DNA from: an uncultured Flavobacteriales bacterium
GTDB lineage: Bacteria; Bacteroidota; Bacteroidia; Flavobacteriales_D; Sanyastnellaceae
DNA: 64,000 nucleotides
Assembly: GCA_938085425.1 (NCBI GenBank)
Contig: CALKGQ010000001.1
Location: 1,850 to 65,849 of the forward strand
Direction: 5' to 3'
The position numbers were made by a program, and so were the translations under genes. Under the pieces are notes generated by a model. The model did no database searches. It saw only the letters and a list, made by a program, of their open reading frames with translations, and had not been told where the DNA came from. Below are positions 33,402 through 53,377 of this stretch, piece after piece (position 1 is the stretch's first letter; each line of letters begins with the position of its first letter).

Positions 33402-36251
33402 ATGCCTTCTATCATACGCCTGTCTTTGGTTTCCTTGTTGTTCACCACGTTGCCTCAGTGGAGCTGGGGACAGTCCTTTGTGAATGGCAATGGCGCTTTG
33501 CCCCAAACGTTCAACAGTGGGGGGTGTGTTGGCTTCGCGGATTTGGACGGCGACGGCCTGGACGATTTGATCGTTTTGGACCAAAGCCGGGACCTGCACA
33601 CTTTGTACCAAACGCCTGCAGGGACGTTCGAAGACTACCCATTGGGCCAGGTTTCGGGCTCCAGCCAGTGGGGCATGTGTGTGGGGGACTTTGACAACGA
33701 CGGCCACAAGGACGTTTTCAGCGGAGGGTCCTACGACGGCGTGCACATGATGCACATCACCGCCCCTGGGCAAGCGAACCTTCAAAGCTTGGGCAACGGG
33801 AGCATGTTCATGCAAGCTTGCAACATGGCGGACATTGACATGGACGGTGTCTTGGATGTTTTTGCGTGCCACGACGATGCCGTCAGCCGCCTTTGGAAAG
33901 GAGAAGAATCAGGTTCGCTTTCCAGCGAATCTGGCTTGATGCCCTTGACCAGCTACGACACGGGAGGTTATCCCAACACGGACCACAGTGGCAACTACGG
34001 CTCCGTTTGGACGGATTTCGACAGGGACGGGGATTTGGACCTCTACATTGCCAAGTGCCGCCAATTCGTCAATGACCCCCAGGACCCGCGCAGGGTCAAT
34101 CAACTGTGGGTCAACGACGGGCAAGGCAATTACACGGAGGAAGCTGCAGCTCGGGGTTTGGTCTTTTTTGAGCAGAGCTGGACGGCAGACTTTGCAGACG
34201 TGGACAACGATGGAGACTTCGATTGTTTGGTCACCAACCACAGCACGACCCTGTTTTTGCTTGAGAACAACGGCGCAGGCCAATTCACAAACATCACCGA
34301 GGGCAGCGGCCTGGAAGTCACAGGCTTCTTTCTCCAAGCCAAAATGGAGGACTTTGACAACGACGGCTACGTGGACCTCGTTTACAGCGGAGGGGTTCAT
34401 GCCTATTTCCACAACAACGGAGACCAAACCTTCACCCAAGTGCCCAACATGTTCCCCTACGGCGACACGATGCACAGCTTTGCCACAGGCGATGTCAACC
34501 GCGACGGTCAGGTGGATTTGTACGCGAGCTACGGAAACGGCTACGTCACCGCAGACAATGGCAACGACGATGTCTTGTGGCTGAACGAAGGCAACGCCGA
34601 CCAGCATTGGATCACCTTTGAGCTCGAAGGATTCCAATCGAACAGAGACGCTGTGGGCGCCACGGTCGAAATCACCGGCTCTTTTGGCACGCAAGTGCGC
34701 AGCGTGCGCGCTGGAGAGAGCTACGGCATCACCTCGACGTTTTCATGCCACTTTGGGCTGGGTGCGGCCGATGTTGTGGAAACGGCCACGGTGTTTTGGC
34801 CTAGTGGTTTGACCACGGAACTGACGGCTCCTTCAGTCGATCAATACCACACTGTCCTCGAAGTGCCTTGCACAGTGCCCCTTGCCATCGAGGCCTCGGC
34901 CACAAGCATCTGCCCCGGGGAGAGCGCCATCTTGATGGCACCTGTTGGGTTTGATTCTTACCAATGGAGCAACGGCACCACGGCCGGCAACATGCTGGAA
35001 GTGACAGAAGCGGGACTCTATGCACTGACCGCCTTCAATGCGGAGGGATGTGCAGGCTTGTCCAACACTGTGCAGGTGGAGGTCTTGGACGGTTCTGTGG
35101 CACCGACGGTGGCTGTGGAAGGAGATGAAAACCTCTGCGCAGGAAGCACATGGACATTGAGCGCAAGTGATGGCTCAGCCTATCTGTGGAGCAATGGCGC
35201 CACCACTTCGAGCATCGAGGTGGGGGTTTCAGGATCCTATTCGGTGTCCGTCGAGGACCAGTGTGGCAATGCCATCTCGTCTTCAGAGGTGGACGTTGTG
35301 GTGTTTGATGGCCCAACGGAGGCCCCAATCATCTCCCCCGACACCACTTTGTCTTCCCCCGGATCGATTCTGTTGACGGCGGAGGCAACAGGAGGGGCGC
35401 TGATCCAGTGGTTTGACGCTGAAGTTGGAGGCAACTTGGTGGCAGAAGGATCGGATGTCAACCTGCCTTTGGTCACGGAGTCCACCACATTGTGGGCAGA
35501 GGCGAGCCAGGTCACCACAGGTCCTTCTGGGACGGGCGGTGAACTTGCGGTGCAGCCCGGAGGACAGTACCACCCCAACAGCGCGCGCTGGTTGGAATTT
35601 GACGTCACCGAGCCCATGCGACTTGTCGATGTGACCTTGCAAGCCAACGGCACCTTTGACCGGTCATTTGAGATCATCGATGCCTTTGGGCAGGTCTTGT
35701 GGTCTGCCACCGAAGAAGTCCAGGATGGGGAGCACCTGCTGTCCATCGGTGTGGAATTGGAACCGGGCTCAGGATACGGTTTGCGCTGCACCACGGACGA
35801 CCCTCAGCTTTGGCGAGAGGGAACGTCGTCGGCCTTGAGTTACCCTTACGATTTGGCGGGACTGGGTTCCATCACCAACAGCACGGCAGGTCCGAGTTTG
35901 GAGTATTACTACTTCTTCTATGTCTGGAACGTGGAAAGCACGTTGGACGTCACGTGCGCCGGACCACGCTCGTCTGTGACCATTGACGTGTCCCAATGCA
36001 CGGACCCTGGCGCATGCAACTTCAACGCGAGCGCCACGGTGGACGACGGGTCATGTGAGTACGCGTCTTGCGCGGAGACCTGCTATGGCGACTTGAATGG
36101 CGATGGAAGCATCACGGTGGGCGACTTGTTGACCGTGCTCTCGGACTTTGGTTGCGCGTCGTCCTGCAATGCGGACATTGATGGGGACGACCAAGTGTCC
36201 GTGCAGGATTTGCTCGCGTTGCTCTCCGTCTTTGGAGAAGTCTGCAACTGA
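33402..36251 (+). CDS. Secreted FG-GAP/VCBS 7-repeat propeller with ASPIC/UnbV domain (CRTAC1-like), Ig-like repeats and a C-terminal dockerin-like pair
   Basis: Signal peptide. Seven DxDxDG-type repeats (FADLDGDGLDD, VGDFDNDGHKD, ...). UnbV/ASPIC stretch (AVGATVEITGSFGTQVRSVRAGESYGI). YxWSNG Ig-like modules. C-terminal DLNGDGSITVGDLLTVLSDFG... Confidence 0.8.
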   Translation: MPSIIRLSLVSLLFTTLPQWSWGQSFVNGNGALPQTFNSGGCVGFADLDGDGLDDLIVLDQSRDLHTLYQTPAGTFEDYPLGQVSGSSQWGMCVGDFDNDGHKDVFSGGSYDGVHMMHITAPGQANLQSLGNGSMFMQACNMADIDMDGVLDVFACHDDAVSRLWKGEESGSLSSESGLMPLTSYDTGGYPNTDHSGNYGSVWTDFDRDGDLDLYIAKCRQFVNDPQDPRRVNQLWVNDGQGNYTEEAAARGLVFFEQSWTADFADVDNDGDFDCLVTNHSTTLFLLENNGAGQFTNITEGSGLEVTGFFLQAKMEDFDNDGYVDLVYSGGVHAYFHNNGDQTFTQVPNMFPYGDTMHSFATGDVNRDGQVDLYASYGNGYVTADNGNDDVLWLNEGNADQHWITFELEGFQSNRDAVGATVEITGSFGTQVRSVRAGESYGITSTFSCHFGLGAADVVETATVFWPSGLTTELTAPSVDQYHTVLEVPCTVPLAIEASATSICPGESAILMAPVGFDSYQWSNGTTAGNMLEVTEAGLYALTAFNAEGCAGLSNTVQVEVLDGSVAPTVAVEGDENLCAGSTWTLSASDGSAYLWSNGATTSSIEVGVSGSYSVSVEDQCGNAISSSEVDVVVFDGPTEAPIISPDTTLSSPGSILLTAEATGGALIQWFDAEVGGNLVAEGSDVNLPLVTESTTLWAEASQVTTGPSGTGGELAVQPGGQYHPNSARWLEFDVTEPMRLVDVTLQANGTFDRSFEIIDAFGQVLWSATEEVQDGEHLLSIGVELEPGSGYGLRCTTDDPQLWREGTSSALSYPYDLAGLGSITNSTAGPSLEYYYFFYVWNVESTLDVTCAGPRSSVTIDVSQCTDPGACNFNASATVDDGSCEYASCAETCYGDLNGDGSITVGDLLTVLSDFGCASSCNADIDGDDQVSVQDLLALLSVFGEVCN
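35997..36248 (+). other. C-terminal module A: CxDPxACNF...DDGSCEY motif plus two dockerin-like EF-hand repeats ending FGEVCN-stop
   Basis: CTDPGACNFNASATVDDGSCEYASCAETCYGDLNGDGSITVGDLLTVLSDFGCASSCNADIDGDDQVSVQDLLALLSVFGEVCN. Confidence 0.7.
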
Positions 36252-36263
36252 CGGGGAGACCCC

Positions 36264-38069
36264 TTATTTCTTGGCCTCGTGAAAGTGGGCGCGAATGGCT
36301 TTGGCCACGCGCAAACTGACCACGCCCAACAGCTGGGTCTCCGTCGCTGCGCGGACCCCTTCGATGTCGCCAAAATGGCCCATCAGTGCCTCCCGTGTTT
36401 TGGCCCCCACGCCAGCAATGTCGTCCAAGGCGGAATGAAGGAACGCTTTGCTCCTGCGCTTTCTGTGGTGGGCAAGGGAGAAACGGTGGGCCTCGTCGCG
36501 CATGTGTTGCACCACCCTCAATGTGGGTGAGCGTTTGTCCAGGTAAATGGGCACGCTGTCGCCCGGAAAGTACAATTCTTCCAATCGCTTGGCGATCCCC
36601 ACAAAGGCAATCTCTCCCCTCAAGCCAAGTTCGTCGATGGCTTCCATGGCATGAGAGAGCTGTCCTTTTCCGCCATCGATGACGACCATCTGTGGCAGGG
36701 ACTCTCCCTCTTCCTTCAAGCGTTTGTACCTGCGGTACACAGCCTCCTTCATGCTGGCAAAGTCATCCGGACCTTCCACCGTTCGGATGTTGAATTTCCT
36801 GTAATCTCGTTTGGCGGGTTTGCCATTCCTGAACACGACACATGCGGAGGCTGGGGAGGTGCCTTGGATGTTGCTGTTGTCGAAGCACTCCATGTGAACG
36901 GGGTGTTCTTTGAGACGCAAGTCGTGCATCATGGTCTCCATGAGCCGTTCTTTTGCGGCGTCTGGGTCCACCTGCTCCAACTGTGCATGTCGGTCCCTCA
37001 TGGCAAACTGGGCATTGCGCAGGCTCATGTCCAGCAGTTTCTTTTTGTCCCCTCGCTGAGGCACCAAACACTCGGCCCCCAGCAACTCCAAGGACACGTC
37101 CACTTGGGCGAGGACGGTGCGGCTGGCCACGTTGAAGCGGTCCCGTATTTGAGGGATGGCCGCCTCAAGCACTTGGGCATCGGTTTCATCCAAGCGACGC
37201 TTGAATTCGAGGGTTTGCCCTTGCACCACGGCACCGTTGTGGATGCGCATGAAGTTCACAAAAGACGACTTGGCATCGCTCACGAGCCCATACACTTCCA
37301 CGTCGGAGATGGTCGGGTGGACCACGGTGCTTTTGGCTTGGAACTTGGCCACGGCTTCCAGCTTGAGCTTGAGCCGTTCTGCCTCTTCAAACCGAAGATC
37401 TTCGGCGGCGGCCGACATGGCTGCTTTCAGGGCAGCCTTCACCTGTCCCAGGTTGCCGCGAAGCACGTGTCGGATGGCGGCGATGCTTTCGTTGTAGGCC
37501 TCTTCCGTTTGCTTGCCCACACAAGGCCCCAGGCAGTTCCCAACATGGTACTCAAGGCATACCCGAAACTTGCCCGAGTTGATGTTTTCTTCCGTCAGGG
37601 CCAAGCTGCACGTGCGCACCGGATAGAGCTTCTTGCACAAGTCCAGCACGGCGTGCATCCCTTTGACATGCGAATAGGGGCCAAAGTATTCACTGCCATC
37701 CTTGCGCACTTGACGGGTGGGGAAGACCCTTGGGAAACGCTCCTTTTTCAACACGAGGAAGGGGTAGGTTTTGTCGTCCTTGAGCTGGATGTTGTAGATG
37801 GGCTTGTGCTCCTTGATCATGCTGTTTTCCAACAACAAGGCATCGGACTCAGAGGCAGTGACAATCCACTGGATGTCGTGGATTTTTCGAACCAAAAGCC
37901 TGGTCTTTCCGTTGGCTTGGTTCTTTGTGAAATAGCTGGAAGCTCTTTTCTTTAGGTTCTTGGCCTTCCCGATGTAGAGCAATTTCCCTTGGGCATCAAA
38001 GTGCTGATACACCCCTGGTTCTTGCGGCATGCGCTCCAAGATTGGCTGGATGTGTTTGGGGGCGGCCAT
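36264..38069 (-). CDS. uvrC: Excinuclease ABC subunit C
   Basis: GIY-YIG N-terminus (PGVYQHFDAQGKLLYIGKAKNLKKR), UvrBC domain, C-terminal HhH. ATG 38069 preferred to track start 38252. Confidence 0.93.
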   Translation of the reverse strand: MAAPKHIQPILERMPQEPGVYQHFDAQGKLLYIGKAKNLKKRASSYFTKNQANGKTRLLVRKIHDIQWIVTASESDALLLENSMIKEHKPIYNIQLKDDKTYPFLVLKKERFPRVFPTRQVRKDGSEYFGPYSHVKGMHAVLDLCKKLYPVRTCSLALTEENINSGKFRVCLEYHVGNCLGPCVGKQTEEAYNESIAAIRHVLRGNLGQVKAALKAAMSAAAEDLRFEEAERLKLKLEAVAKFQAKSTVVHPTISDVEVYGLVSDAKSSFVNFMRIHNGAVVQGQTLEFKRRLDETDAQVLEAAIPQIRDRFNVASRTVLAQVDVSLELLGAECLVPQRGDKKKLLDMSLRNAQFAMRDRHAQLEQVDPDAAKERLMETMMHDLRLKEHPVHMECFDNSNIQGTSPASACVVFRNGKPAKRDYRKFNIRTVEGPDDFASMKEAVYRRYKRLKEEGESLPQMVVIDGGKGQLSHAMEAIDELGLRGEIAFVGIAKRLEELYFPGDSVPIYLDKRSPTLRVVQHMRDEAHRFSLAHHRKRRSKAFLHSALDDIAGVGAKTREALMGHFGDIEGVRAATETQLLGVVSLRVAKAIRAHFHEAKK

Positions 38070-38106
38070 CGTTGAACGAAGGTAGGTCGCGCAGTACTTT
38101 CGAGAC

Positions 38107-39156
38107 ATGAATTTGGTGACGGGTGCGACGGGGATTGTGGGCATGCCTTTGGTGGTCAAGCTTCTCCAAAGTGGGGAGGCTGTCCGGGCATTGCGTCGGG
38201 CCACGAGCGACACGTCCCTTGTGGAGGCTGCCGTGCAGCGTCGGGTGCCCAAGGGCCGTTCCCGTTTGGAATGGGTGGAGGGTGATTTGACAGATCAAGC
38301 AAGCCTCGAGGCTGCTCTCGAAGGGGTACAGCGCGTCTTTCATTGTGCTGCATTGGTGTCCTTTCATCCCAAAGACCATGGCCAAATGGACCGCATCAAT
38401 GCGCAAGGCACCGCCCACTTGGTGGACGCCATGCTTCACTGCGGCACCCCGAGGCTGCTGCACGTGAGCAGTGTGGCAGCGCTGGGGCGCAAGGAAGGCC
38501 AGCCCACCAATGAAGACACCCTTTTTGAAGAACAGCCGGGCACCACGGGGTATGCCAGAAGCAAGCACAGGGCAGAGATGGAGGCATGGCGTGGGTCCGT
38601 GGAAGGATTGCCAGGAGGTTTGGTGGCCGTTCATCCTACAGTGGTATTGGGTCCAGGCGATTTTTCGAGAAGCTCTGGCGCCTTGTTTGACCGCATCTCA
38701 CGTGGTTTGGCATGGTACCCCAAGGGGAGCAATGGGTTCGTCGGATCAGAAGATGTTGCTGAGGCTTGTGTCCGCTTGGGGTTGAGTGAGGTCCGCGATG
38801 AACGGTTTGTGCTGTGCGCAGAACAATGGACGTACGAAGCGATGATGAAGGCCATTGCGTTGGCCCTTCATGTTCGCCCCCCTCATCGACCGGTCCACCG
38901 GTGGATGGTCGGATGGATTTGGCGTGCGTTGGCCTTGGTGGAGGCGCTCACAGGCCGCCGGTCGGTGGCCACAAGAGAGAGCTTGGCGAACACGGGAGCG
39001 CATCACACTTACGAGGGTACACGGATTGTGAAGGCGATGGAAGGCTTGGGCAAGCCTTGGTCCTACACCCCCATTGGCGAGGTGATTGAGCAGACGGCCA
39101 AGGTTTACTTGCTCGGACGCTCTGCAGGAAGGGAAGGAACGCGGTCTCCTGATTGA
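38107..39156 (+). CDS. NAD-dependent epimerase/dehydratase (extended SDR, dihydroflavonol-reductase-like)
   Basis: MNLVTGATGIVG Rossmann motif, YxxxK region (YARSKHRAE). Confidence 0.75.
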   Translation: MNLVTGATGIVGMPLVVKLLQSGEAVRALRRATSDTSLVEAAVQRRVPKGRSRLEWVEGDLTDQASLEAALEGVQRVFHCAALVSFHPKDHGQMDRINAQGTAHLVDAMLHCGTPRLLHVSSVAALGRKEGQPTNEDTLFEEQPGTTGYARSKHRAEMEAWRGSVEGLPGGLVAVHPTVVLGPGDFSRSSGALFDRISRGLAWYPKGSNGFVGSEDVAEACVRLGLSEVRDERFVLCAEQWTYEAMMKAIALALHVRPPHRPVHRWMVGWIWRALALVEALTGRRSVATRESLANTGAHHTYEGTRIVKAMEGLGKPWSYTPIGEVIEQTAKVYLLGRSAGREGTRSPD

Positions 39157-39542
39157 GGCGCCCGAAATTTGGAGTCTGCATTCGTGGATGCAGTGTCCGC
39201 ATGGTTGAGACGGGCTTCCATGGTTTTCAGAAGGTCGACGGCATCGCGCAACACGTCTTTCATGGCGGAGGGATGTGACCACCACCAGGCGTGGCTGGTT
39301 TCAAATTGGGATGCGCTTACGCCCGTGCGGTGCCAAACGTCGTTGTAGGCCTCTGTCATGCGCATGCGTTCGTTGTCGTTTCTGTGAATGCGCAACTGCA
39401 AGGAGGCTTCCACAAGTTGAATCTCTGCCATGACCATGACAAAGCTGTCCTTGGAGAGGACATGGTTGGGTGGCGAAGGAACAGCGGGTCCACCGACAGG
39501 ATCCGAGGCACAGCTCCAAAGGATCAGGCACGCCAGGAACAT
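39105..39542 (-). CDS. DUF4296-like lipoprotein
   Basis: ATG 39542 gives MFLACLILWSC lipobox. Helical body (MAEIQLVEASLQL...). Typical position downstream of the dihydroorotase-like gene. Confidence 0.5.
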   Translation of the reverse strand: MFLACLILWSCASDPVGGPAVPSPPNHVLSKDSFVMVMAEIQLVEASLQLRIHRNDNERMRMTEAYNDVWHRTGVSASQFETSHAWWWSHPSAMKDVLRDAVDLLKTMEARLNHADTASTNADSKFRAPQSGDRVPSLPAERPSK

Positions 39543-39564
39543 TCCTGCGGATTTGCCTAGTGAA

Positions 39565-40944: not shown

Positions 40945-40947
40945 GGA

Positions 40948-41685: not shown

Positions 41686-41704
41686 GGAAGGAAGATACGT
41701 TCAA

Positions 41705-42655: not shown

Positions 42656-42684
42656 GAAGGGCAAAGGTACGTCTTGAGAAAGGG

Positions 42685-43137: not shown

Positions 43138-43179
43138 GAAGGTCGCAGCTCGAATGCACAGGCGGGTGCCGGGAATGGA

Positions 43180-44052: not shown

Positions 44053-44206
44053 TCGAACGGGGGAGTTGAACCCCAAAGATGCGCTTTCAGGGCGATGATG
44101 GCACTGTCGTGGGCGGACTTTAACCACCCTTGAATTGTGGGAAACCCTTGGAAAAGAGGGTGTTCACAATGGATTGCCGTATCTTGAGAAATCCAAACCG
44201 TTGACC

Positions 44207-45604
44207 ATGTTGATTCGCCTGTCCTTTTCTGCCCTTTGCGCAGCCCTTCTTTTTTTGACGTCCAACCCCGTTTCAGGACAAGAAACGTTCCAGGTCGGGG
44301 CGACCACGCTCACGGCGTCGAACGTCGCTTCTGGCATCCAAATCCCATGGGAACTGCTTTGGGGACCAGACGATCATCTTTGGGTGACGAGCCGCGCAGG
44401 TTCGGTGCACCGCATTGACCCAGAGACCGGGACCACGTCTACGGTGTTGACCAAATCCGTCACCAACAACGGCAACGGCGAGCCCGGCATGCTGGGCATG
44501 GCCATGCACCCTGATTGGGAGAACACCCCCAAGGTGTTTGTGGTCTACACAAGTGGATCTTCTTGGAATGGCACAGAGTACTTGTCGGTGTTCGATTGGA
44601 ATGGATCTGGACTCGTGAACGAAGAAGTGCTTTTGTCCCTCCCGGCAGCAGGCATCCACAATGGAAGCCGCCTGTTGGTGCTCCCCGACAACACGCTCTT
44701 GATGTCCACAGGGGACAAAGGGGATGGAGGGGCGAGCAGCCAAAACTTCAACAGCCTCAACGGCAAGATCCTTCGCTTGAACCTCGACGGCAGCATCCCA
44801 GCAGACAATCCCACTCCGGGAAGCTATGTGTACAGCATGGGGCACAGGAACCCACAGGGTTTGGCCATGGGCCCCAATGGCCTCATCTACAGCTCTGAGC
44901 ATGGCCAAAGCAACAACGACGAGGTGAACATCATCCAACCGGGACGCAACTACGGCTGGCCCAATGTGGAGGGGGTGTGCAACACTTCAAGCGAGAACAG
45001 CTTTTGTGTGGCCAACAACGTGGTCGAACCCATCGATACGTTTTCGCCCTGTGCCGCGGTCAATGGCATGACCTGGTACAACCACCCGGCCATCCCGGAG
45101 TGGCAAAACAGCATTTTGCTCTCTGTCATGGGTGGTTTTGCCCTCGACGACAAGCGCCTGAGTGTGTTGTCCCTTTCGGAAGACGGCACGACCGTCACAA
45201 ATGAAACGCAGCATTTTGCCAGTTACGGACAGCGCCTGCGCGATGTGGCTGTCAACCCCACCACAGGCGCGGTGTATGTGGCCTTCAACGGCTCTTCCTA
45301 CCCCGGCTCTGGTCCCAACGTGATCAAAGAATTCCGCAACCTCGACTACGTGCCCTCCACCGCTGTTGCGGGATGCAAGTACCCAGGCGCACTGAACTAC
45401 AACGCCGGCGCCACAGAGGATGACGGCACTTGCCAATTCGCGGGGTGCACCGACATGGAAGCTCTGAACTACGTGCCTTGGGCCAACGTGGACACCGATT
45501 GCATTTACCAAGCGCCTTGCGCAGTGGACGTCGATGCCGATGGCGCGACCACAGTCGCCGACTTGCTCCTCGTGCTTGGTGCCTTTGGCGACCTCTGCGA
45601 TTGA
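44207..45604 (+). CDS. Secreted PQQ-dependent sugar dehydrogenase (soluble glucose/sorbosone dehydrogenase family) with C-terminal dockerin-like repeat
   Basis: GMLGMAMHPDW, GHRNPQGLA, EHGQSNNDEVNIIQPGRNYGWP. Signal peptide at ATG 44207. Confidence 0.85.
   Translation: MLIRLSFSALCAALLFLTSNPVSGQETFQVGATTLTASNVASGIQIPWELLWGPDDHLWVTSRAGSVHRIDPETGTTSTVLTKSVTNNGNGEPGMLGMAMHPDWENTPKVFVVYTSGSSWNGTEYLSVFDWNGSGLVNEEVLLSLPAAGIHNGSRLLVLPDNTLLMSTGDKGDGGASSQNFNSLNGKILRLNLDGSIPADNPTPGSYVYSMGHRNPQGLAMGPNGLIYSSEHGQSNNDEVNIIQPGRNYGWPNVEGVCNTSSENSFCVANNVVEPIDTFSPCAAVNGMTWYNHPAIPEWQNSILLSVMGGFALDDKRLSVLSLSEDGTTVTNETQHFASYGQRLRDVAVNPTTGAVYVAFNGSSYPGSGPNVIKEFRNLDYVPSTAVAGCKYPGALNYNAGATEDDGTCQFAGCTDMEALNYVPWANVDTDCIYQAPCAVDVDADGATTVADLLLVLGAFGDLCD
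45371..45601 (+). other. C-terminal module B: two CxxxxA(L/C)NY motifs plus one dockerin-like repeat ending FGDLCD-stop
   Basis: GCKYPGALNYNAGATEDDGTCQFAGCTDMEALNYVPWANVDTDCIYQAPCAVDVDADGATTVADLLLVLGAFGDLCD. Confidence 0.65.
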
Positions 45605-45661
45605 CCATCCCAACAAAACCACCCTACGACTTCGACCCACAACCCTACGAATCCCACTCTC

Positions 45662-48007
45662 ATGAACCCTATTTCTACTTTGTCCGCCACGCTTTGCGCC
45701 CTCGCGCTCTTCTGCGGAATCCCCCAAGTGCTTCACGCCCAATGCACCGACAACCAGTCTGAAGTGGTTGTTGAAATCCTCACCGACAACTACCCCGGCG
45801 AAATCACTTGGACGTTGACCGGCACGGAAGGATTGTTGCTTTCTGGAGGTCCTTACGGCTCCACAGGCACGTCCTATTCGGACACAGTGTGCATCGACAA
45901 TGCAGATGCGTACCCGTGCTTGCAATTCGTCATCAACGACAGTTACGGCGATGGCATCTGCTGTGGATACGGTCAAGGGTCGTACACGATTTACCTCGAC
46001 GGAGAGTCGGTGGCCACAGGAGGAGACTACGACCAACAAGACCTCGTGCAATTCGACTGCGCCCCAGGGGCCACCTGCAACGACGCGGTGGCATTGACGG
46101 ATGCAGACTTTGGCACGGTGTCGCAAGCAGGGGACAATTTTTGGTACACCTACACCCCGCCCGCCAACGGCATGTACCAGTTCAGTTCCTGTGGGGCCAA
46201 CTGCAACACGACGCTGTACATCTACGACTATTGCAACATGGGCAACTTCGACGACACGAACGAAGGGTCCATCTACTACGACGACGACCAGGGCGGTTGT
46301 GGCGAAGAAGCCACGATGACCATGTTGTTGGAGGGAGGACAGCAATACTGGGTTCGCTTTGCGTCGTTGGACAGCAGTTGTGGTGGGTTCGATTGGACGT
46401 TTGACTACGCGGGCCAACCCACGGGATGCACCGACCCCACTGCCTGCAATTACAGCCCGGCTGCAGAGGTGGACAATGGGTCTTGCATTTACGAAGGCGA
46501 CCCGATGTGCACTGGCCCGGATCTCGTGGTTTTGGCGGACGTGGTGTCCAGCAGCCTTTACTCGACCACGATGAATGTGAGCGAGACCGATTGCTACATC
46601 GAAGAAGGTTGCTTGAATGGCTTTGGCGAAAGAGAGCTCATCCGATTCACGACCCACATCAAGAACATTGGCGAATTGGACTACTACATCGGGACGACTG
46701 CGCAGGCAGAGCAGACCGGACAATTTGAATTTGGAGATTGCCACAACCACTGGCACTACCAAGGGTACGCGAAGTATGACCTTTTCACCATGGACGGAGC
46801 GTTGATCCCCATTGGGTTCAAGAACGGCTTCTGTGTGATGGATTTGGAGTGCAGCGACGGCGGGACGTTCACCTATGGATGTTCCAACATGGGCATCGCA
46901 TCGGGATGTGGCGACATTTATTCGAGTGGCTTGAGCTGCCAATGGATCGACGTTACGGACGTGGAGGACGGCCAATACCGCCTCGTGGTGCGTGTCAACT
47001 GGGACTACGATCCCGACGCCTTGGGTCGCTATGAGACCAACACCGAGAACAACTGGGGTGTGGTTTGCATTGAGTTGGACAGGTCCGGAGGGGATTTGCA
47101 GACCATCATTTTGACAGACTGCCCTACGTTCACGGATTGCTCAGGCGAACCTTACGGAACGGCCTTGTTGGATTGCAACGGCGAGTGCGGTGGTGTGGCC
47201 ATGGTGGGCGACTTGAACGACGACCTCCAGCAAGACATGGCCGACGCCCAGATGTACGTGGAGGGTGTTCTTGGGAGCGACTTGACGGTGGCGGATTGTT
47301 CCGACATCAACGCCGACGGCACCATGTCGGTGGCGGACGCGATGTTCATGGCAGATTGCCACTTTTGGAACCAAGCGCACACCGACCCGGACAGTTCCGG
47401 CGTCCACAGCCATTGCGAGTTCCCCGTGAACGACCTCACGAACCCCTTCGATACAACGCACTTCACCATCGCAGATGTGAATTGGGAGGAGCAGTACTTC
47501 GACGTGCATGTCAAGAATCCCGACGCTCGGATTTACGGCTACCAGTTGGAGTTTGATGGGGTCCAAATCAGCCAAACAGAGAGCCTCCTCGACCCTGCCA
47601 CGGGCTACACAGGAATCCCTGCCCACGCCCCGGGAGGTCAGCAGGTGCTGACGGTCAGCTACGATGGCACGTCAGCGCCCAAAAACACGGTGTACGTGCC
47701 GCTTGTGCGCGTCCATTGGATTGGAAGCGTCAACGGCATGGTGTGTTTGGAAGGCGTGCATGAAGTGATGAACGACTACTTGCAGAAGACCTTGATTGAT
47801 TTGGACAACCCTTGCCAGGAGCAAGCCGACAGTTCTTGCCCTGGAGACACCGACGGAGATTTGGTCGTGTCTGTCTCTGACGTGTTGGACGTCCTCAGCG
47901 AGTTTGGGTGCATCACCAACTGCACCATGGACATCAACGGGGACGGTGTCACCAACGTGACCGACGTGCTTGCGGTGTTGTCTGCATTTGGGACCGATTG
48001 CAATTGA
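45662..48007 (+). CDS. Secreted multidomain lysyl-oxidase (LOX, PF01186-like) homologue with Cys-rich N-terminal modules, an internal cohesin-like domain and a C-terminal dockerin-like pair
   Basis: Block-by-block similarity to the animal LOX catalytic domain as I remember it: ERELIRFTTHIKNIG, FEFGDCHNHWHYQGYAKYDL, GFKNGFCVMDLEC, GCGDIYSSGLSCQWIDVTDVEDGQYRL, TENNWGVVCIEL. Signal peptide ...IPQVLHA. Confidence 0.8.
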   Translation: MNPISTLSATLCALALFCGIPQVLHAQCTDNQSEVVVEILTDNYPGEITWTLTGTEGLLLSGGPYGSTGTSYSDTVCIDNADAYPCLQFVINDSYGDGICCGYGQGSYTIYLDGESVATGGDYDQQDLVQFDCAPGATCNDAVALTDADFGTVSQAGDNFWYTYTPPANGMYQFSSCGANCNTTLYIYDYCNMGNFDDTNEGSIYYDDDQGGCGEEATMTMLLEGGQQYWVRFASLDSSCGGFDWTFDYAGQPTGCTDPTACNYSPAAEVDNGSCIYEGDPMCTGPDLVVLADVVSSSLYSTTMNVSETDCYIEEGCLNGFGERELIRFTTHIKNIGELDYYIGTTAQAEQTGQFEFGDCHNHWHYQGYAKYDLFTMDGALIPIGFKNGFCVMDLECSDGGTFTYGCSNMGIASGCGDIYSSGLSCQWIDVTDVEDGQYRLVVRVNWDYDPDALGRYETNTENNWGVVCIELDRSGGDLQTIILTDCPTFTDCSGEPYGTALLDCNGECGGVAMVGDLNDDLQQDMADAQMYVEGVLGSDLTVADCSDINADGTMSVADAMFMADCHFWNQAHTDPDSSGVHSHCEFPVNDLTNPFDTTHFTIADVNWEEQYFDVHVKNPDARIYGYQLEFDGVQISQTESLLDPATGYTGIPAHAPGGQQVLTVSYDGTSAPKNTVYVPLVRVHWIGSVNGMVCLEGVHEVMNDYLQKTLIDLDNPCQEQADSSCPGDTDGDLVVSVSDVLDVLSEFGCITNCTMDINGDGVTNVTDVLAVLSAFGTDCN
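47836..48004 (+). other. C-terminal module C: two dockerin-like EF-hand repeats ending FGTDCN-stop
   Basis: CPGDTDGDLVVSVSDVLDVLSEFGCITNCTMDINGDGVTNVTDVLAVLSAFGTDCN. Near-colinear with module A. Confidence 0.7.
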
Positions 48008-48042
48008 TCATCTGAACCCAGTCCTTTTTCAGAGGACCGCAC

Positions 48043-48080
48043 AACCCCTGTCTCCTTGATTGGAAGGCAGGGGTTTTGTG
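48043..48080 (+). terminator. Rho-independent terminator after the LOX-like gene
   Basis: 11-bp stem AACCCCTGTCT / AGGCAGGGGTT running into TTTTGTG. Confidence 0.6.
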
Positions 48081-48109
48081 TGCGCTTCAAGTCGAACAGG
48101 GCGCTTGCT

Positions 48110-48520
48110 TCAACGGCCAGCGGGGCGCTTCCACAGGGGTTGGTAGTGCGTCCAATTGGCGAACATCAACGCGGCATTGAGCAGAAAAATGCCCCCCATG
48201 ATGGCCAAATGGCTTGGGACCATGAACACCCCCCAAAGAAGCATTCCTGTGGCGTAGGGAAAGGCGACCAAGACGCCAAGCGGTTCCCGACCAGGAAGGA
48301 GCAAGAGGGCCCCTCCCGCCACCTTGGTCAGGCAAATGAAAGGCAACAAAAACCCGGTCTCCAAGACGGCCGAGACGAAGGCCTGCGCCCCCAGTTCTTC
48401 ATATCCCGTGGCCATGACGGACGGGTCACCCCAGACCACAGTGACGAGGTGCTTGGTGCCCGAGGCGAGGAGGAAGGCCGCATAGACGAATTTGAGGCCT
48501 TTGTGGAGGAGAGGGTGCAT
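48110..48520 (-). CDS. DoxX-family membrane protein
   Basis: 136 aa, four TM helices, LLASGTKHL / KVAGGALLLLPG pattern typical of DoxX. Confidence 0.6.
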   Translation of the reverse strand: MHPLLHKGLKFVYAAFLLASGTKHLVTVVWGDPSVMATGYEELGAQAFVSAVLETGFLLPFICLTKVAGGALLLLPGREPLGVLVAFPYATGMLLWGVFMVPSHLAIMGGIFLLNAALMFANWTHYQPLWKRPAGR

Positions 48521-48534
48521 GGGGTTTGTCGGAT

Positions 48535-49692
48535 TCAGGAGCCGCCGCCTTCGTATTGCAGAAGCACGCGCTTTTTGTTGGGGGACATCTGCAGATGAAA
48601 GGATGGGCCCGTCTCGGTGAGCATCACATGCAAATGCTCTGGGCCATTGGAGATGGAGTCCGCTTCCTTTAAGAAGCGAAGCAAGTTGTTGGACAGCACG
48701 TGGAACTCATCGATGGTGTTCAAGGGCATATCGACCGTCACGCTCTCTTGGGATTTCCCGTCGAAAGCGTATTCAAGAACGACCCCATCGCGGTGCATGG
48801 TGAACTCTTTGAAGGCCATGCCCTCTCCTCGTTGGCCCAAGTCCAAGCGCTCTTTCCAGAGGACTTCTGAGCCTTTGTGTTGAAGCTTTTGACAGGATTG
48901 GTCCATGTGGTTCTCAAAGAAAGAAGCGAGGTCAAAGGGCCTGCTGGCCGACAAGAACCCTTCGAAGACATGGCCGGTGCCTTCGTCCAGTTCGATTTCG
49001 ATGAAGGGGGCGTGAAGCATGTGTATGGGGTGGCCCCACTCGGTGCGCCCCGCAGAAGAAAAGCTCGAGTTGAAGTTCAGGGAGACATCCAGAGATTCGG
49101 TGGAGGCGCCAACCCGCCTCACTCCCTGTCGCCACTCAAGTTGGGCGACCACGTCGCTCTGAAGGCTGGGGGCACTTCGCACATTCAGGGGCAGCCATGA
49201 ATTGGCATACACCGAGTCGGAGGGAGTCCGTGGTGAGGAATTTGGAAATGCGGGATCGGGGAGCCAACGTTGGGTGGACAGGAGTTCGTAGTCCTTCGAC
49301 TTTTCGTGCACCAAGACCTCTCCGTCGAGGTAAAAGGTGTGCTCGTTGAATTCACCGTCCCCAAAATCTCCACGTGCACCTCGCTCTAGGATGAGCCTGT
49401 CGGCGTCGTTTTGAACGATGGCGTTGAAACTGCACATGCAACACTCCAGGAGGCGCGCCATGTTCAGCGCCTGTTCGTCGGCCATGGTTTCGTAAGTGAT
49501 CCCTTGGAACAAAAACGATTCGTCGCTTTGCGCTCCTAGGGAGGGGTTGCTCTTGACCGTGCCCTCGAGGAAGCTCAGCTGCTCGCCTTCGAGCACCCAG
49601 TGGCTGTACCGGTGCTTTTCTAGGAAGCTCGGTGCCTGGGCTGCGAGCCACAAAGGCCATGCCATCAGTATGATGAGGAGGGTCTTGGTCAT
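48535..49692 (-). CDS. Hypothetical secreted protein with an SH3b-like segment
   Basis: Signal peptide MTKTLLIILMAWPLWLAAQA at ATG 49692. The central LNVRSAPSLQSDVVAQLEWRQGV resembles bacterial SH3. Ends 14 nt before the DoxX gene on the same strand. Confidence 0.5.
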   Translation of the reverse strand: MTKTLLIILMAWPLWLAAQAPSFLEKHRYSHWVLEGEQLSFLEGTVKSNPSLGAQSDESFLFQGITYETMADEQALNMARLLECCMCSFNAIVQNDADRLILERGARGDFGDGEFNEHTFYLDGEVLVHEKSKDYELLSTQRWLPDPAFPNSSPRTPSDSVYANSWLPLNVRSAPSLQSDVVAQLEWRQGVRRVGASTESLDVSLNFNSSFSSAGRTEWGHPIHMLHAPFIEIELDEGTGHVFEGFLSASRPFDLASFFENHMDQSCQKLQHKGSEVLWKERLDLGQRGEGMAFKEFTMHRDGVVLEYAFDGKSQESVTVDMPLNTIDEFHVLSNNLLRFLKEADSISNGPEHLHVMLTETGPSFHLQMSPNKKRVLLQYEGGGS

Positions 49693-49823
49693 GGCCCCAA
49701 GGTAGGAGGAGTTCGAGCTCACTCGGCCCTCTGAGGAGTTTCTTTGGAGTGGCGGAAGGGAGAGATTGCCGCCCTGCGGGCGACGATGCCAGGACAGGGG
49801 CTGCTCTCAACCCCAGAAAGCGC

Positions 49824-49854
49824 AAGCGCGCCGCGAGGCGCGCTTACTGTTTTT
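49824..49854 (+). terminator. Orphan terminator-like hairpin on the plus strand (no annotated plus-strand gene upstream)
   Basis: AAGCGCGCC-GCGA-GGCGCGCTT (9 bp, GNRA loop) followed by ACTGTTTTT. Confidence 0.35.
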
Positions 49855-49903
49855 GCGCCCTTCGCCTCCGACCCAAGCGAGCTTGGTAGGATTCTTTGGC
49901 CAC

Positions 49904-49930
49904 AAAAAAACCCCAAGCGTTTGCTTGGGG
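49904..49930 (-). terminator. Rho-independent terminator after tRNA-Cys
   Basis: Minus strand: CCCCAAGC-AAAC-GCTTGGGG followed by TTTTTTT. Confidence 0.8.
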
Positions 49931-49941
49931 CTTTCTGGGGT

Positions 49942-50015
49942 TGGAGGTCCGAAGCGGATTCGAACCGCTGTAGCAGCTTTTGCAGAGCTGAGCCTAGCCA
50001 CTCGGCCATCGGACC
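49942..50015 (-). tRNA. tRNA-Cys (anticodon GCA), CCA encoded
   Basis: Hand fold. Acceptor GGTCCGA/TCGGACC, anticodon stem CAGCT/AGCTG with loop CTGCAAA, T-arm GCGG-TTCGAAT-CCGC, discriminator U followed by CCA. Confidence 0.85.
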
Positions 50016-50144
50016 CTTTCCAAAGTGGCGAACCACAGTGGGCTTGCGAAGATACGCAAGCGGGTTCAATAAGGTTTCGTTTTTGGGGGATAAATTCAGG
50101 AAAGACGCGTACAACGCTGGGGAGGCAGGCCTGAGGGGATGGGT

Positions 50145-50152
50145 TAGATTTG
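50145..50152 (+). promoter_or_regulatory. Candidate -7 promoter box (TAGATTTG) 4 nt before the pssA ATG (leaderless-type)
   Basis: Exact TAnnTTTG. The ATG is at 50157. Confidence 0.4.
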
Positions 50153-50156
50153 CAAC

Positions 50157-50930
50157 ATGAACACGTGGAAATGGGTGCCCAATGCATTGACCCTTGGCAA
50201 TTTGCTGGGAGGGGTCGTGGTGTGCTGGGCGTCGGCGTCGGGATCGTTTTTGGGAGAGGCCTTGATTCAGGAGGGCAACGCGTGGTCAGGGACCCTGGCT
50301 GTGGCAACGGTGTGGTCGTTGGCCATGTTCTGCGACGTGCTGGATGGATGGGCGGCGCGGAAGCTCGGGGTCGCAGGGCCCATGGGTGTGCAATTGGACA
50401 GCTTGGCAGATGTGGTCACGGGAGGCGTGGCGCCAGCGATGGTGGCGATGCGCCTGTTCCAGGACGATGGTGGGGCGGCGATGACTTGGGAGGTGCTGGC
50501 GTGCTTGGGTGTGGCGGCAGCCGCGGCCTACCGTTTGGCACGGTTCAATGTGGCGGCAGGAGAAGGGGAAGGAGGGCCGTTTTTTGAAGGGTTGCCGGCA
50601 CCTGCGGCAGGAATCTTTTGGATGGGGGTGATGCTGGCTTGGGGAGAGTTGCAGGGGGGTCCGGAGGTGCTTTGGGCCACTTCGTTGGCTTGGGTGGGCC
50701 TTGTGGTGGTGCCCTTGGCCATGGTGAGCCGCAGGAGGATGTGGGGGTTGAAAGGGTGGGGCGAGAGCACGCGTGTGGACCAAATGCGAGGGATCATGGT
50801 CCCTGTGATTTTGGGCGTGGGCATTGGGTCCTGGTTTGCTTGCCAAAGCGCGTTCATTGCTGTGCCGCTGTGTTTACTTTTGTACCTCGCATTGGCCATG
50901 GCCACCACGCCACAGCCCACCACCGATTGA
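50157..50930 (+). CDS. pssA: CDP-diacylglycerol--serine O-phosphatidyltransferase (CDP-alcohol phosphatidyltransferase family)
   Basis: DVLDGWAARKLGVAGPMGVQLDSLAD matches DGx2ARx8Gx3Dx3D. Polytopic membrane protein. Confidence 0.8.
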   Translation: MNTWKWVPNALTLGNLLGGVVVCWASASGSFLGEALIQEGNAWSGTLAVATVWSLAMFCDVLDGWAARKLGVAGPMGVQLDSLADVVTGGVAPAMVAMRLFQDDGGAAMTWEVLACLGVAAAAAYRLARFNVAAGEGEGGPFFEGLPAPAAGIFWMGVMLAWGELQGGPEVLWATSLAWVGLVVVPLAMVSRRRMWGLKGWGESTRVDQMRGIMVPVILGVGIGSWFACQSAFIAVPLCLLLYLALAMATTPQPTTD

Positions 50931-50957
50931 CATTCATCCACCCACGCACCTCTGCAC

Positions 50958-51209
50958 ATGAAATTCCGCGCCGCCATCGAGATCATGCCTCTTCCCGCAT
51001 TGTTGGACCCTCAGGGAAAGGCCGTCAGCAACAACTTGCCCAACATCGGGTTGCCGACTGTGGGCAATGTGCGCATCGGAAAGCACGTGACCTTGGAGGT
51101 GGAGGCGGACAGCCGCGAGGCGGCAGAAGGCTTGGTGAATGATGCATGCACCAAACTGCTCGTGAACGAGATCATGGAGGGGTACACCTTCCGTCTCGAA
51201 GAGGCTTGA
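50958..51209 (+). CDS. purS: Phosphoribosylformylglycinamidine synthase subunit PurS
   Basis: 83 aa, ...LLDPQGKAV...VRIGKHVTLEVEA...LLVNEIMEGY. Confidence 0.85.
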   Translation: MKFRAAIEIMPLPALLDPQGKAVSNNLPNIGLPTVGNVRIGKHVTLEVEADSREAAEGLVNDACTKLLVNEIMEGYTFRLEEA

Positions 51210-51241
51210 GTTGATTCTTTAGGAAGCCCAGTTTAGGTGCT

Positions 51242-53377
51242 TCAGTCGCACGCCGTCCCGAAGTAGAGCAGGAATTCCAGCACGTCGTTGACCCCGACAA
51301 ACCCGTCGTCGTCCAAGTCTTCCACGCCCAAAACGGGGATGGCGTCGTAGCTGGCCAGCAAAATCAACATGTCGTCGATGCCGCGGGTGCCGTCGCCGTT
51401 CAAATCGGCAGCACAAACCGCATGGGCTTCGATCAAGTCGAAGGCCAGGTTCAAAGCGTGTTCGGCCACCTCCAGTCCAATGCGGCGTCCGGGAAGGTCG
51501 TCGCACGGCGGGTGGATGCCGCCCCAAATGCGGGACAAACTGCACTGGTCTGAGGCATCTCGGTAGGTTGCCCACTGCAACACAATGTCTTGTGAGGGTC
51601 CTTCTTCAAACACGAGGAAATCGTCCGCGGGTGCCACAAACTCGCCAAGGCCACCAGGGAAAAATGCATCCCCGGTGATGGCGGTCATCACCTCTGCTGC
51701 GGCCCGCGAGAAGGTGGAGTGTCCGCTGACGTACCCGGCAAAGGGTGGGGTCACAAAGGAAGGCCGTTGGTAGGGCCACCACTGTTCTGCAAGGATCCAA
51801 TCCACACCAGCTTCGTCGGTGGCTGGGTTGTTGATGTACTCGGGTCCCCTCCAGGCGCGGACCTTGAGTTTGTCCACATCAGCGGGGCTCGGAAAGTCGA
51901 GGTCGCCCGGCGTGACCATCTCACAAAACCCAGGGACCAGGGGAAGGCCCGTGGCATCAAAATTGGGCAAATTGGGGTCGGTGCACTGTCCTCGGCCTTG
52001 CATCCACCTCAAAGCGGACACGGGTCGGATGTAGTCGTACCAGCCTTTGTGGCTCCATGCGGCGATGGCGGCATCGTGCAACGCCCCGCCAAGTGTGAAG
52101 TAGGCACACACCGCCCAATCAAAGGGGTACATGTCGGGACCTTCGCCACGCCATTTGGCCTCAAAATCGGGGTGGTCCATCACCCCATTGGCGATGCTGA
52201 ACCAGTGTCCCGGAGGCGTTTCTGAATCGGGGCCATCGGCCCAAAACTCCGCCAACACACGGGTGTAGTCTCCGCGCGGCACCAGTTGTTCCTCATAGGC
52301 CGCTCCTGTGGCCGGGTTGAGGGCATGGCCTTGGCTGGGGTCTCCCCCATGCTCCCAGTCGTAAAACTGGTCGTACTCCGAGTAACCGAGGTTCAAAAGT
52401 GAGGGGTCGACATTGCCCACAGAAGACGGGCTGATGTCCAGCATGACGCCGTCGGTGGGGTCCAAATGCTCCGACCAGCGCAACACCATGGCATGTCCCC
52501 ATGTGTAGGCGTCTTCGATGCCTTGGGCATAGTTCAAGGACAGGAGCGGTGGTTCACCTTGGTCCAGCCAAACAGGGTAGGGATGGCCGTCGTCGCTCAT
52601 GTACACGGTGCGCACACTGTCCGGCAACCCAAACGGCGTCACCTGTCCCCATTCGGGGCTGAGGAACGGAGGGGTTTCCGATTCTGGAACCCCACTTTGG
52701 CCAATGAATGTGCTGAGGTTGATGCTCTGCCATCGGTTGGGCTGCGCCAAGAAGGGATTGCCTGGCACGGTCTCGATGAACATGTCCGGGTTGGAGGGCG
52801 TGTAGTGTTGGTTGGCGTAACCGTTGATTTCGTTGCTCCCGTCGGCGTAACCATAGGCCAAGACTTGTTGCGCGATGTAGTTGCCAAGGGCTGCAGGTCC
52901 ATCCACGAGGTAGTCGGTGCTCTGCATGCTGTTCACGCCTCCCTCCAACGCGAATTGTTGGAAGATGGACATCAAGGTCGCATTGCCTCCGGGACTTCCT
53001 GAGAAGCGGTTCCACAAAAGCCGGTAGGAGGCGTAGTTGATGGCTTCTTCTTGGGCCAAACGCCTCGCCACGGGATCTTCAATCGCCGGCAGGTTGACGT
53101 TCACAAGAAAGGGAGCGGCCGTGCTGTCGTAGGCTGCCCATGCATCGTAGCAGGCCAACGACCAATGGTGCAAGTTCCTTGCATGGACGGTAGGACGTGC
53201 CAGATCTGCACGAATGGACTCCAACAACACCTCGTTCCAATCGCGGACCATGTTTTGGGCTTGAACCCCCGTCCCATGGGACAGTGCCACGCCCCAAAAG
53301 GCGCACAACGAAGCCACCCGCAGGAGGGCTCGGCGGTGCCGCTGACGTGGAGTGTCCTTGTGAAAATGCATGGTCAT
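51242..53377 (-). CDS. Secreted PAP2-superfamily / vanadium-haloperoxidase-like enzyme with possible Tat leader and C-terminal dockerin-like pair
   Basis: All three PAP2 motifs are intact: KGWYDYIRP (Kx6RP), VSGHSTF (SGH), SRIWGGIHPPCD (SRx5Hx3D). N-terminus has RQRHRRALLRVASLCAFWGVALS. ATG 53377 (track start 53392 is TTG). Confidence 0.75.
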   Translation of the reverse strand: MTMHFHKDTPRQRHRRALLRVASLCAFWGVALSHGTGVQAQNMVRDWNEVLLESIRADLARPTVHARNLHHWSLACYDAWAAYDSTAAPFLVNVNLPAIEDPVARRLAQEEAINYASYRLLWNRFSGSPGGNATLMSIFQQFALEGGVNSMQSTDYLVDGPAALGNYIAQQVLAYGYADGSNEINGYANQHYTPSNPDMFIETVPGNPFLAQPNRWQSINLSTFIGQSGVPESETPPFLSPEWGQVTPFGLPDSVRTVYMSDDGHPYPVWLDQGEPPLLSLNYAQGIEDAYTWGHAMVLRWSEHLDPTDGVMLDISPSSVGNVDPSLLNLGYSEYDQFYDWEHGGDPSQGHALNPATGAAYEEQLVPRGDYTRVLAEFWADGPDSETPPGHWFSIANGVMDHPDFEAKWRGEGPDMYPFDWAVCAYFTLGGALHDAAIAAWSHKGWYDYIRPVSALRWMQGRGQCTDPNLPNFDATGLPLVPGFCEMVTPGDLDFPSPADVDKLKVRAWRGPEYINNPATDEAGVDWILAEQWWPYQRPSFVTPPFAGYVSGHSTFSRAAAEVMTAITGDAFFPGGLGEFVAPADDFLVFEEGPSQDIVLQWATYRDASDQCSLSRIWGGIHPPCDDLPGRRIGLEVAEHALNLAFDLIEAHAVCAADLNGDGTRGIDDMLILLASYDAIPVLGVEDLDDDGFVGVNDVLEFLLYFGTACD
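51245..51420 (-). other. C-terminal module D: two diverged dockerin-like repeats ending FGTACD-stop
   Basis: AVCAADLNGDGTRGIDDMLILLASYDAIPVLGVEDLDDDGFVGVNDVLEFLLYFGTACD. Confidence 0.6.

Follow-up and report, generated by a model that had tools for sequence, protein, structure and literature searches.

Divergent, cysteine-bracketed dockerin-like modules at the C termini of exported proteins in Flavobacteriales

We analyzed a 64,000-nucleotide stretch of DNA from an uncultured Flavobacteriales bacterium (GenBank assembly GCA_938085425.1, contig CALKGQ010000001.1, positions 1,850 to 65,849 of the forward strand; referred to here as the window), in which four exported proteins end in the same kind of small, cysteine-bracketed module. 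On sequence comparison, these tails belong to the dockerin superfamily as divergent members and come nearest to the GC-type dockerin class of NCBIfam (NF041540), which is catalogued and uncharacterized. With moderate confidence, we interpret them as GC-type-like dockerin modules that bind calcium, are clasped by a disulfide, and act as docking or anchoring handles. Three points go beyond the catalogue: a single-repeat form bracketed by Cys predominates, a disulfide clasp is likely, and the module has repeatedly been swapped with the type A C-terminal domain (CTD) of the type IX secretion system (T9SS) in marine Flavobacteriales.

The four carriers (P1 to P4) and their tails (A to D, in the same order) are listed in Table 1. 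Translation of the four open reading frames (ORFs) and direct reading of their N termini bore out the proposal of the initial annotation that four otherwise unrelated signal-peptide proteins share this ending: each begins with a leader of the signal peptidase I type with Gln at position +1. A codon-level DNA pattern of the ending, V-x-D-x-L-x-x-L-x-x-F-G-x-x-C-[DN]-stop, matched the window four times, at the four tails, versus 0.00 times in 100 shuffles, which excludes chance for these tails. A six-frame regular-expression search of the window revealed no further genuine tail.

In each repeat, a Ca2+ loop of 12 residues, D-x-[DN]-x-D-G-x-[VIT]-x-V-x-D, leads into an amphipathic helix that has F-G at its end. 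Two such F-hand repeats in tandem, with the Ca ligands at loop positions 1, 3, 5, and 12, are present in tails A, C, and D, and one is present in tail B; the loop residues D1, D/N3, D5, and D12 are present in all seven repeats (7 of 7). In the window tails, the module starts with a Cys three residues ahead of the first loop Asp and ends with a Cys after which a single residue of the protein remains. The original description of the modules was largely accurate. Every loop had been said to be followed by FG, which is true of most, the exception being repeat 1 of tail D, which ends in YD; tails A and C, described as nearly colinear, are 52% identical, with FGCxxxC common to both; and the content of the four spans was correct, but those of C and D were out of frame by 1 to 2 nt and are given in frame in Table 1. 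In an AlphaFold2 (AF2) model, the region of tail C formed two helices (predicted local distance difference test [pLDDT] score, 74 to 87).

Table 1. Features of the window. An arrow marks the leader cleavage site read from the sequence; bit scores are those of a local tail hidden Markov model (HMM) built in this analysis from the tails
Feature	Position	Strand	Remarks
P1, FG-GAP/ASPIC protein (CRTAC1-like; FG-GAP_3, UnbV_ASPIC, Ig_7), 949 amino acids (aa)	33402-36251	+	Leader SWG↓Q; end FGEVCN
Tail A (P1)	36081-36248	+	Two-repeat, Cys to Cys, CYGDLNGDG...FGC-ASS-C...FGEVC-N; 82 bits
P2, pyrroloquinoline quinone (PQQ) glucose/sorbosone dehydrogenase (GSDH), 465 aa	44207-45604	+	Leader VSG↓Q; end FGDLCD
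Tail B (P2)	45518-45601	+	Single-repeat, C-AV-DVDADGATTVADLLLVLGAFGDL-C-D; HMM positions 27-55, 31 bits
P3, lysyl oxidase (LOX) homologue (Lysyl_oxidase), 781 aa	45662-48007	+	Leader LHA↓Q; end FGTDCN
Tail C (P3)	47837-48004	+	Two-repeat, ...FGC-ITN-C...FGTDC-N; 87 bits
P4, vanadium-chloroperoxidase-like protein (VCPO_2nd, DUF6851)	51242-53377	-	Leader VQA↓Q; end FGTACD
Tail D (P4)	51245-51415	-	Two-repeat, no inner Cys pair, C-AA-DLNGDG...YD...DLDDDG...FGTAC-D; 66.5 bits
Small Cys-bracketed module upstream of tail A	35997-36056	+	CTDPGACNFNASATVDDGSC
Related copies of the small module	45374-45433, 45446-45502, 46427-46486		
P3 N-terminal region, residues 27-135	45740-46060		CTDNQSEVVVEILTDNYPGEITWTL...
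P3 degenerate GDLNDD..., DINADG... pair	47207-47344		Rejected as an internal dockerin
P3 beta-rich domain, residues 585-725	47414-47836	+	Candidate cohesin-like fold
P4 N terminus	53290-53377	-	MTMHFHKDTPRQRHRRALLRVASL
GSDH-LOX tailed pair (P2, P3)	44207-48007	+	Same orientation, 57 bp apart
M1 peptidase with T9SS type A CTD	24124-26646	-	CTD ~24139-24384; context
PKD/Ig_7 protein with CHU_C (T9SS type B) CTD	59781-63839	+	Context

We then determined the family placement of the tails. NF041540 aligned over its full length (positions 1 to 67 of 67) from the first to the last Cys, corresponding to residues 1 to 55 of the 56-aa tail, with 25.6 bits for tail A, 21.4 bits for tail C, and 21.0 bits for tail D, all of which are under its curated cut-off of 29 bits. 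In an alignment with metagenomic relatives, the model was full-length in 15 of 15 tails (best E value, 9e-10). One flavobacterial relative scored 29.0 bits and one planctomycete relative 29.4 bits. Planctomycete tails ending in FGxGC[DN] did not clearly turn out to be the seed type of this model (15.9 to 29.4 bits). On Pfam Dockerin_1 (PF00404; gathering score, 22.9 bits), tail A scored 23.1 bits when scanned alone and 16.8 bits within the whole protein, tail C scored 13.7 bits, and tails B and D had no match; tail A alone also matched EF-hand models. A bivalent relative, a protein of about 380 aa, reached 28.9 bits on the same model. Tail B and the other single-repeat tails tested had no match in Pfam or NCBIfam. 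When the tail profile was compared with PDB, the best solved relative was a type I dockerin, 2Y3N_B (E value, 1.1e-9; 52 of 56 profile positions, with the F-G after each helix included), followed by other dockerins and calmodulin lobes. The dockerin resemblance noted earlier is upheld by these comparisons, while the accompanying reservation, that dockerin systems are not classical in T9SS-bearing Bacteroidota, is not supported: dockerins of Bacteroidota have precedent (PMC6487960).

An exhaustive HMMER search returned 38,320 representative proteins at an E value of ≤1e-3 and 2,718 at ≤1e-10, and these relatives often end in ...HFGPCP, ...WGPCP, or ...FGTxC(x); the module is thus one branch of a large class. 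P1 to P4 had no match to Por_Secre_tail (PF18962) or CHU_C (PF13585), though both models detected other proteins of the window. Nor was there an NCBIfam match to sortase-type signals (PEP-CTERM, LPXTG, GlyGly-CTERM, and similar); the tails have no hydrophobic span or basic cluster and stop 0 to 2 residues past the Cys. A literature search for the name "GC-type dockerin" found no paper.

The tails share with NF041540 the two F-hand repeats, the extent from a Cys before loop 1 to a terminal Cys, and the location at the C termini of diverse exported proteins; they differ from it in an inter-repeat linker about 11 residues shorter and in the single-repeat form, which the model does not match. With type I dockerins, such as that of Pseudobacteroides cellulosolvens Cel48 (2Y3N chain B), they have in common the duplicated loop-helix, the D-x-N-x-D-G...D ligands, the F-G after the helices, and, as we infer, a contact between the termini like the "intramolecular clasp" described for solved dockerins (PMC3821032). 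Here, however, a disulfide would take the place of a stacking or ionic contact; furthermore, the linker is cut to C-x-x-x-C, the tails come from a diderm marine flavobacterium, the cargo is noncellulosomal, and no cohesin has been identified. Tails of the B type resemble the single-loop group 2 dockerins of Ruminococcus flavefaciens, described as the only known functional natural truncated dockerins (PMC12270676), in that one Ca loop ends an exported protein, but the sequence relation does not extend beyond the F-hand, and the marine form, a predicted dockerin, has two bracketing Cys. The "Planctosome" hypothesis for freshwater Planctomycetes (PMC6461901) likewise concerns noncellulosomal dockerins on M12B reprolysin-like peptidases of aquatic diderms; in contrast to the present case, where no cohesin is established, it rests on recognizable cohesin modules.

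The strict pattern was subsequently scanned across one genome per GTDB species, giving at least 118 stretches; all carrier counts are lower bounds. After translation, at least 119 genuine carriers were found in 65 assemblies, mostly of marine Flavobacteriales. Among the matches listed, the carrier assemblies were labeled Flavobacteriales (45), Bacteroidota (6), Crocinitomicaceae (5), Comamonadaceae (4), Planctomycetota/Phycisphaerae (3), and Chryseobacterium (2, labels of metagenome-assembled genomes [MAGs]). The window's own genome is represented in the scan by assembly CAWVVM01, an uncultured Flavobacteriales MAG, whose loci L021, L049, and L085 have tails identical to those of the window. 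The loci of the "uncultured Comamonadaceae" MAGs (L030, L059, L068, L080 to L082, L110, and L120) are nearly identical to Flavobacteriales ones, e.g., in the GSDH-LOX pair of L068, and the Comamonadaceae label of these MAGs is probably wrong.

Among the matches listed, the single-repeat form was found in 64 of 113 nonredundant tails and two repeats were found in 41, while in seven tails a Cys-rich insert set the two repeats 67 residues apart; these seven (7 of 7) all belonged to M12B peptidases. ORFs of about 790 aa in loci L007, L053, L062, L107, and L118 are M12B reprolysin-like, with a Cys-rich CCGxGTxWD insert between the repeats. The cargo of 49 complete carriers comprised M12B reprolysin-like, M43, and S8 peptidases, glycoside hydrolases of families GH16, GH81, and GH13 (with CBM48/CBM20/X25), endonuclease I, arylsulfotransferase, fasciclin, cupredoxin, LOX, and GSDH, M12B being the commonest family; judged by these families, the cargo is exo-enzyme-like. 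It had been proposed to check whether all carriers have signal peptides: a crude leader detector applied to complete ORFs found a leader in 65 of 76 complete carriers listed, with Gln at +1 in 52, and several of the remaining ones show leaders after non-ATG starts.

Upstream of tail A lies a further small Cys-bracketed module of about 20 aa, of the form C-x(4-6)-[AC]-x-N-[YF]-x3-A-x(3-5)-D-[DN]-G-[ST]-C, related copies of which occur elsewhere in the window (Table 1). It was found just upstream of the tail in 45 of 118 carriers listed, in up to 8 copies per protein, and had no match in Pfam or NCBIfam.

We asked which features of the tails were conserved across genomes. The pattern itself fixes V10, D12, L14, L17, FG, C, and D/N, and conservation at those columns carries no information. 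At positions outside it, D1 was found in 105 of 105 tails, D/N3 in 96, D5 in 99, and the Cys at -3 in 87. The first Cys was present in each of the 40 nonredundant two-repeat tails, and between their repeats there were two Cys in 32 tails and none in 8, but never a single one; the upstream Cys was present in 68 of 70 tails without a nearby second repeat. From these counts, the two outer Cys go together, and so do the two of the inner FGC-xxx-C, which form a second and optional unit. According to Slutzki et al., all solved dockerins that are intact show a contact between residues -3 to -1 ahead of the first loop and residues ~60 to 64 near the C terminus, an "intramolecular clasp" that stabilizes the Ca-bound dockerin fold (PMC3821032). 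Since the outer Cys sit at the places of this contact, the pair is likely a disulfide version of the dockerin clasp.

The initial annotation had put weight on the fixed position of the module at the very C terminus, as expected of a sorting tag, and on the [DN] that follows the last Cys. This residue is indeed D or N in the four window tails, but family-wide the final Cys is followed by nothing or by L, F, Y, D, N, P, E, S, or PE, and the only constant is a Cys 0 to 2 residues from the end. Neither is the module always terminal: among pattern-independent matches in flavobacterial loci, it was terminal in 24 of 27. A Cys-terminated module ending in FGxTC lies upstream of a Fib_succ_major domain in three proteins (P0128, P0166, and P0180). 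Two others, P0043 and P0049 (L123:255-1337), consist of a leader, 4 to 5 tandem Cys-to-Cys modules, and a T9SS type A CTD, and of nothing else. Proteins of about 380 aa (L038:8-1135, minus strand, L076, L083, and L102; P0147) have one two-repeat module right after the leader and another at the C terminus, an adaptor-like arrangement. The variable residue after the Cys, together with the internal, tandem, and both-end modules, argues against a tag read by its position, which the final Cys probably is not. A role as surface scaffolds is conceivable for P0043 and P0049, which lie on unrelated contigs too short to reveal their gene neighborhood.

The relation of the tail to the T9SS type A CTD (PF18962/TIGR04183) was determined on the top 120 relatives of P1, which are 48 to 96% identical to it and of which 112 are 919 to 978 aa long. 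A dockerin-like module, single or double, ends 33 of the 120, and a T9SS type A CTD ends the other 87; 52 of the latter have PF18962 in their precomputed annotation, and the remaining 35 were recognized by an HMM derived from these 52 (E value, ≤8e-10). On a neighbor-joining tree of the region shared by the P1 relatives, at least five switches between tail and CTD are needed. In addition, P0196, a relative of the C-terminal part of P3, has PF18962 after the beta domain in place of the tail. Thus, tail and type A CTD are evolutionarily interchangeable on the same cargo, which supports an anchoring or addressing role. The two have the same terminal position on orthologous cargo, and both occur on exo-enzymes of the same genomes; they are unrelated in fold and sequence, no CTD model matches the tail, and the dockerin-like module is found also upstream of true CTDs. 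Weak matches of T9SS CTD models inside four tail carriers were internal Ig-like segments and not CTDs. The earlier idea of a third C-terminal label is correct insofar as the module is distinct from the T9SS CTDs and can replace them in P1 orthologues and in the P3 relative; it is not new, as NF041540 already spans it from Cys to Cys.

A cohesin partner of the tails was sought on the basis of the cohesin-like region of the initial annotation, to which the beta-rich domain of P3 (residues 585 to 725) corresponds. This domain is a candidate cohesin-like fold: in an AF2 model of P3 residues 491 to 781 (mean pLDDT, 58; 60 to 82 in the domain), cohesins were the top 7 Foldseek matches in PDB, the best ones being 2CCL_A (E value, 5e-6; template modeling [TM] score, 0.50) and 2JH2_A (TM score, 0.56). 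A second model, of the P3 domain alone (pLDDT, 57), gave no cohesin and no Foldseek match under an E value of 0.4. The profile of residues 585 to 725 found nothing among PDB sequences under an E value of 0.39 and nothing in Pfam, and among 123 loci this domain occurs only in LOX orthologues. We treat the cohesin reading of the domain as a lead suggested by modeling and do not claim it. A degenerate pair of Ca-loop-like motifs upstream of the beta domain was considered as an internal dockerin of P3 and rejected as unsupported (tail HMM, 2.7 bits; Dockerin_1 E value, 0.99).

The following course of events would be consistent with these data. The enzymes would be exported via Sec and have their leaders removed by signal peptidase I, as the features of these leaders suggest, and in the oxidizing, Ca-rich envelope or seawater the conserved loop ligands would bind Ca2+. 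A disulfide between the first and last Cys, to which their co-occurrence points, would tie the ends of the module together as a covalent clasp, and the optional inner FGC-xxx-C pair, on the same grounds, would make a second, local bridge. Homology and tail swapping suggest that the folded module may be a detachable handle holding soluble exo-enzymes to an envelope partner or to each other, and it would then do the job that covalent surface attachment via the T9SS type A CTD does in sister lineages. That the protein stops after the Cys would then reflect the end of the fold and not the reading of its terminus as a tag. Several results weigh against this interpretation. None of the window tails reaches the curated cut-off of NF041540, and the single-repeat tail B fits no curated model. 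The putative disulfide is deduced from the co-occurrence of the Cys and the published dockerin geometry, not from coordinates. No partner was identified and no cohesin was found by sequence, and the cohesin-like fold predicted for P3 was not reproduced in the second model. The exposed helix positions are variable, with no conserved recognition face visible across genomes. Finally, without a T9SS CTD the enzymes have no evident route across the diderm outer membrane, and the module may act in the periplasm.

Alternatively, the tail might itself be a secretion or sorting signal, either of a third class of T9SS cargo or of another outer membrane export route, recognized and perhaps removed in export. 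Its repeated replacement of the type A CTD in orthologues (at least five times), the normally extracellular cargo families, the prevalence of terminal copies (24 of 27), and the T9SS cargo encoded by carrier genomes speak for such a signal. Interchangeability does not, however, make the tail a secretion signal, because the module is helical and Ca-binding, as predicted from sequence, unlike the beta-sandwich CTDs, the models of which it does not match; because it is found in MAGs of Planctomycetota and Phycisphaerae; and because it can precede a genuine T9SS CTD (P0043 and P0049), or Fib_succ_major, which is unexpected for a terminal signal. To our knowledge, Planctomycetota, in which the dockerin-like module is present, are a phylum without T9SS. 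We consider such a signal unlikely. A stabilizing or solubility cap dependent on Ca2+ and disulfides, or a Ca2+-bridged binder of anionic envelope polysaccharide, would need no partner at all, in keeping with the failure to detect a cohesin or other receptor and with the poor conservation of the exposed positions; also, for many noncellulosomal dockerin-like modules no cohesin is known. One would not expect a mere stabilizer to trade places specifically with a domain for anchoring or secretion, nor to occur in tandem arrays or bivalent proteins, and this explanation seems to us very improbable.

The single-repeat tails invite yet another explanation. The conserved V10, L13/14, L17, and F20 form one hydrophobic stripe, which in a two-repeat dockerin packs on the other helix and which, judged from sequence, is unsatisfied in the 64 single-repeat tails. 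These tails retain both Cys, and two of them might pair antiparallel as half-dockerins through two intermolecular disulfides, start to end, rebuilding the two-F-hand fold and giving cohesin-free covalent dimers or arrays; a tail could have as its partner a further copy of its own enzyme, a different enzyme, or a T9SS-anchored poly-module protein. In R. flavefaciens, single-loop group 2 dockerins bind their cohesin in pairs whose members are in contact (PMC12270676), and proteins suited to the role of partner exist, namely, those with 4 to 5 modules and a type A CTD and those with a module at each end. Yet an intrachain disulfide may instead close the 28-residue unit, the Cys-rich modules upstream might shield the stripe, and the poly-module proteins lie on unrelated short contigs. 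We regard pairing of this kind as quite unlikely. Its extended version, in which half-dockerins on enzymes, bivalent adaptors, and T9SS-anchored poly-module proteins pair with one another and are locked by intermolecular disulfides, strikes us as a long shot. If true, it would amount to a cohesin-free, covalently cross-linked enzyme display in marine Flavobacteriales; the pairing would substitute for direct anchoring by a T9SS CTD and might allow enzymes that lack a CTD to exit the cell bound to partners that have one.

Among the major degraders of algal polymers are the marine Flavobacteriales, and whether an enzyme is periplasmic, surface-bound, or free decides who gains from the breakdown products. 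In these lineages, the dockerin-like module is widespread on peptidases, glucanases, amylases, nucleases, and redox enzymes. NCBIfam scores it below its cut-off and Pfam leaves most of the tails unmatched; because neither of these curated libraries assigns the module, surveys of secreted or T9SS-dependent proteins would misclassify such enzymes. The single-repeat form, with its predicted disulfide bracket, would add to the very few natural truncated dockerins on record, and its size of 28 residues could suit a Ca-dependent or redox-dependent tag. A cultured carrier is available, Sanyastnella coralliicola, in which the question is testable.

As for the surroundings of the carriers, the four copies in 18 kb had been taken as a sign of a dedicated system. 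The genes between the carriers are uvrC and those for an epimerase, a dihydroorotase, a glycosyltransferase, a pseudouridine synthase, and UPF0102; interspersed with such housekeeping genes, the four carrier genes are neither an operon nor a dedicated island. The window does encode T9SS type A and type B cargo, as had been annotated, in the form of the M1 peptidase and the CHU_C protein, respectively (Table 1); the CTD of the former indicates that the genome also uses T9SS tails. The tailed GSDH gene followed by the tailed LOX gene is kept in at least two other MAGs (L060 and L068), and the two products may be a functional redox pair. The N-terminal region of P3 is without a family match, and the region next to it has a weak choice_anch_R match (E value, 0.029). 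The start codon of P4 is uncertain, and the exact product with the start used here is not on record, nor was one found for the M1 peptidase, probably on account of differing start codons; the N terminus of P4 may be a leader of the twin-arginine translocation (Tat) type and not of the Sec type. Two database proteins, P0198 and P0199, are frameshift or assembly chimeras in which the LOX tail is followed by unrelated out-of-frame sequence, in P0198 that of a PorP_SprF-like protein. An association with PorP/SprF, prompted by P0198, was rejected, as such a gene lies near only 1 of 123 loci and none is present in the window.

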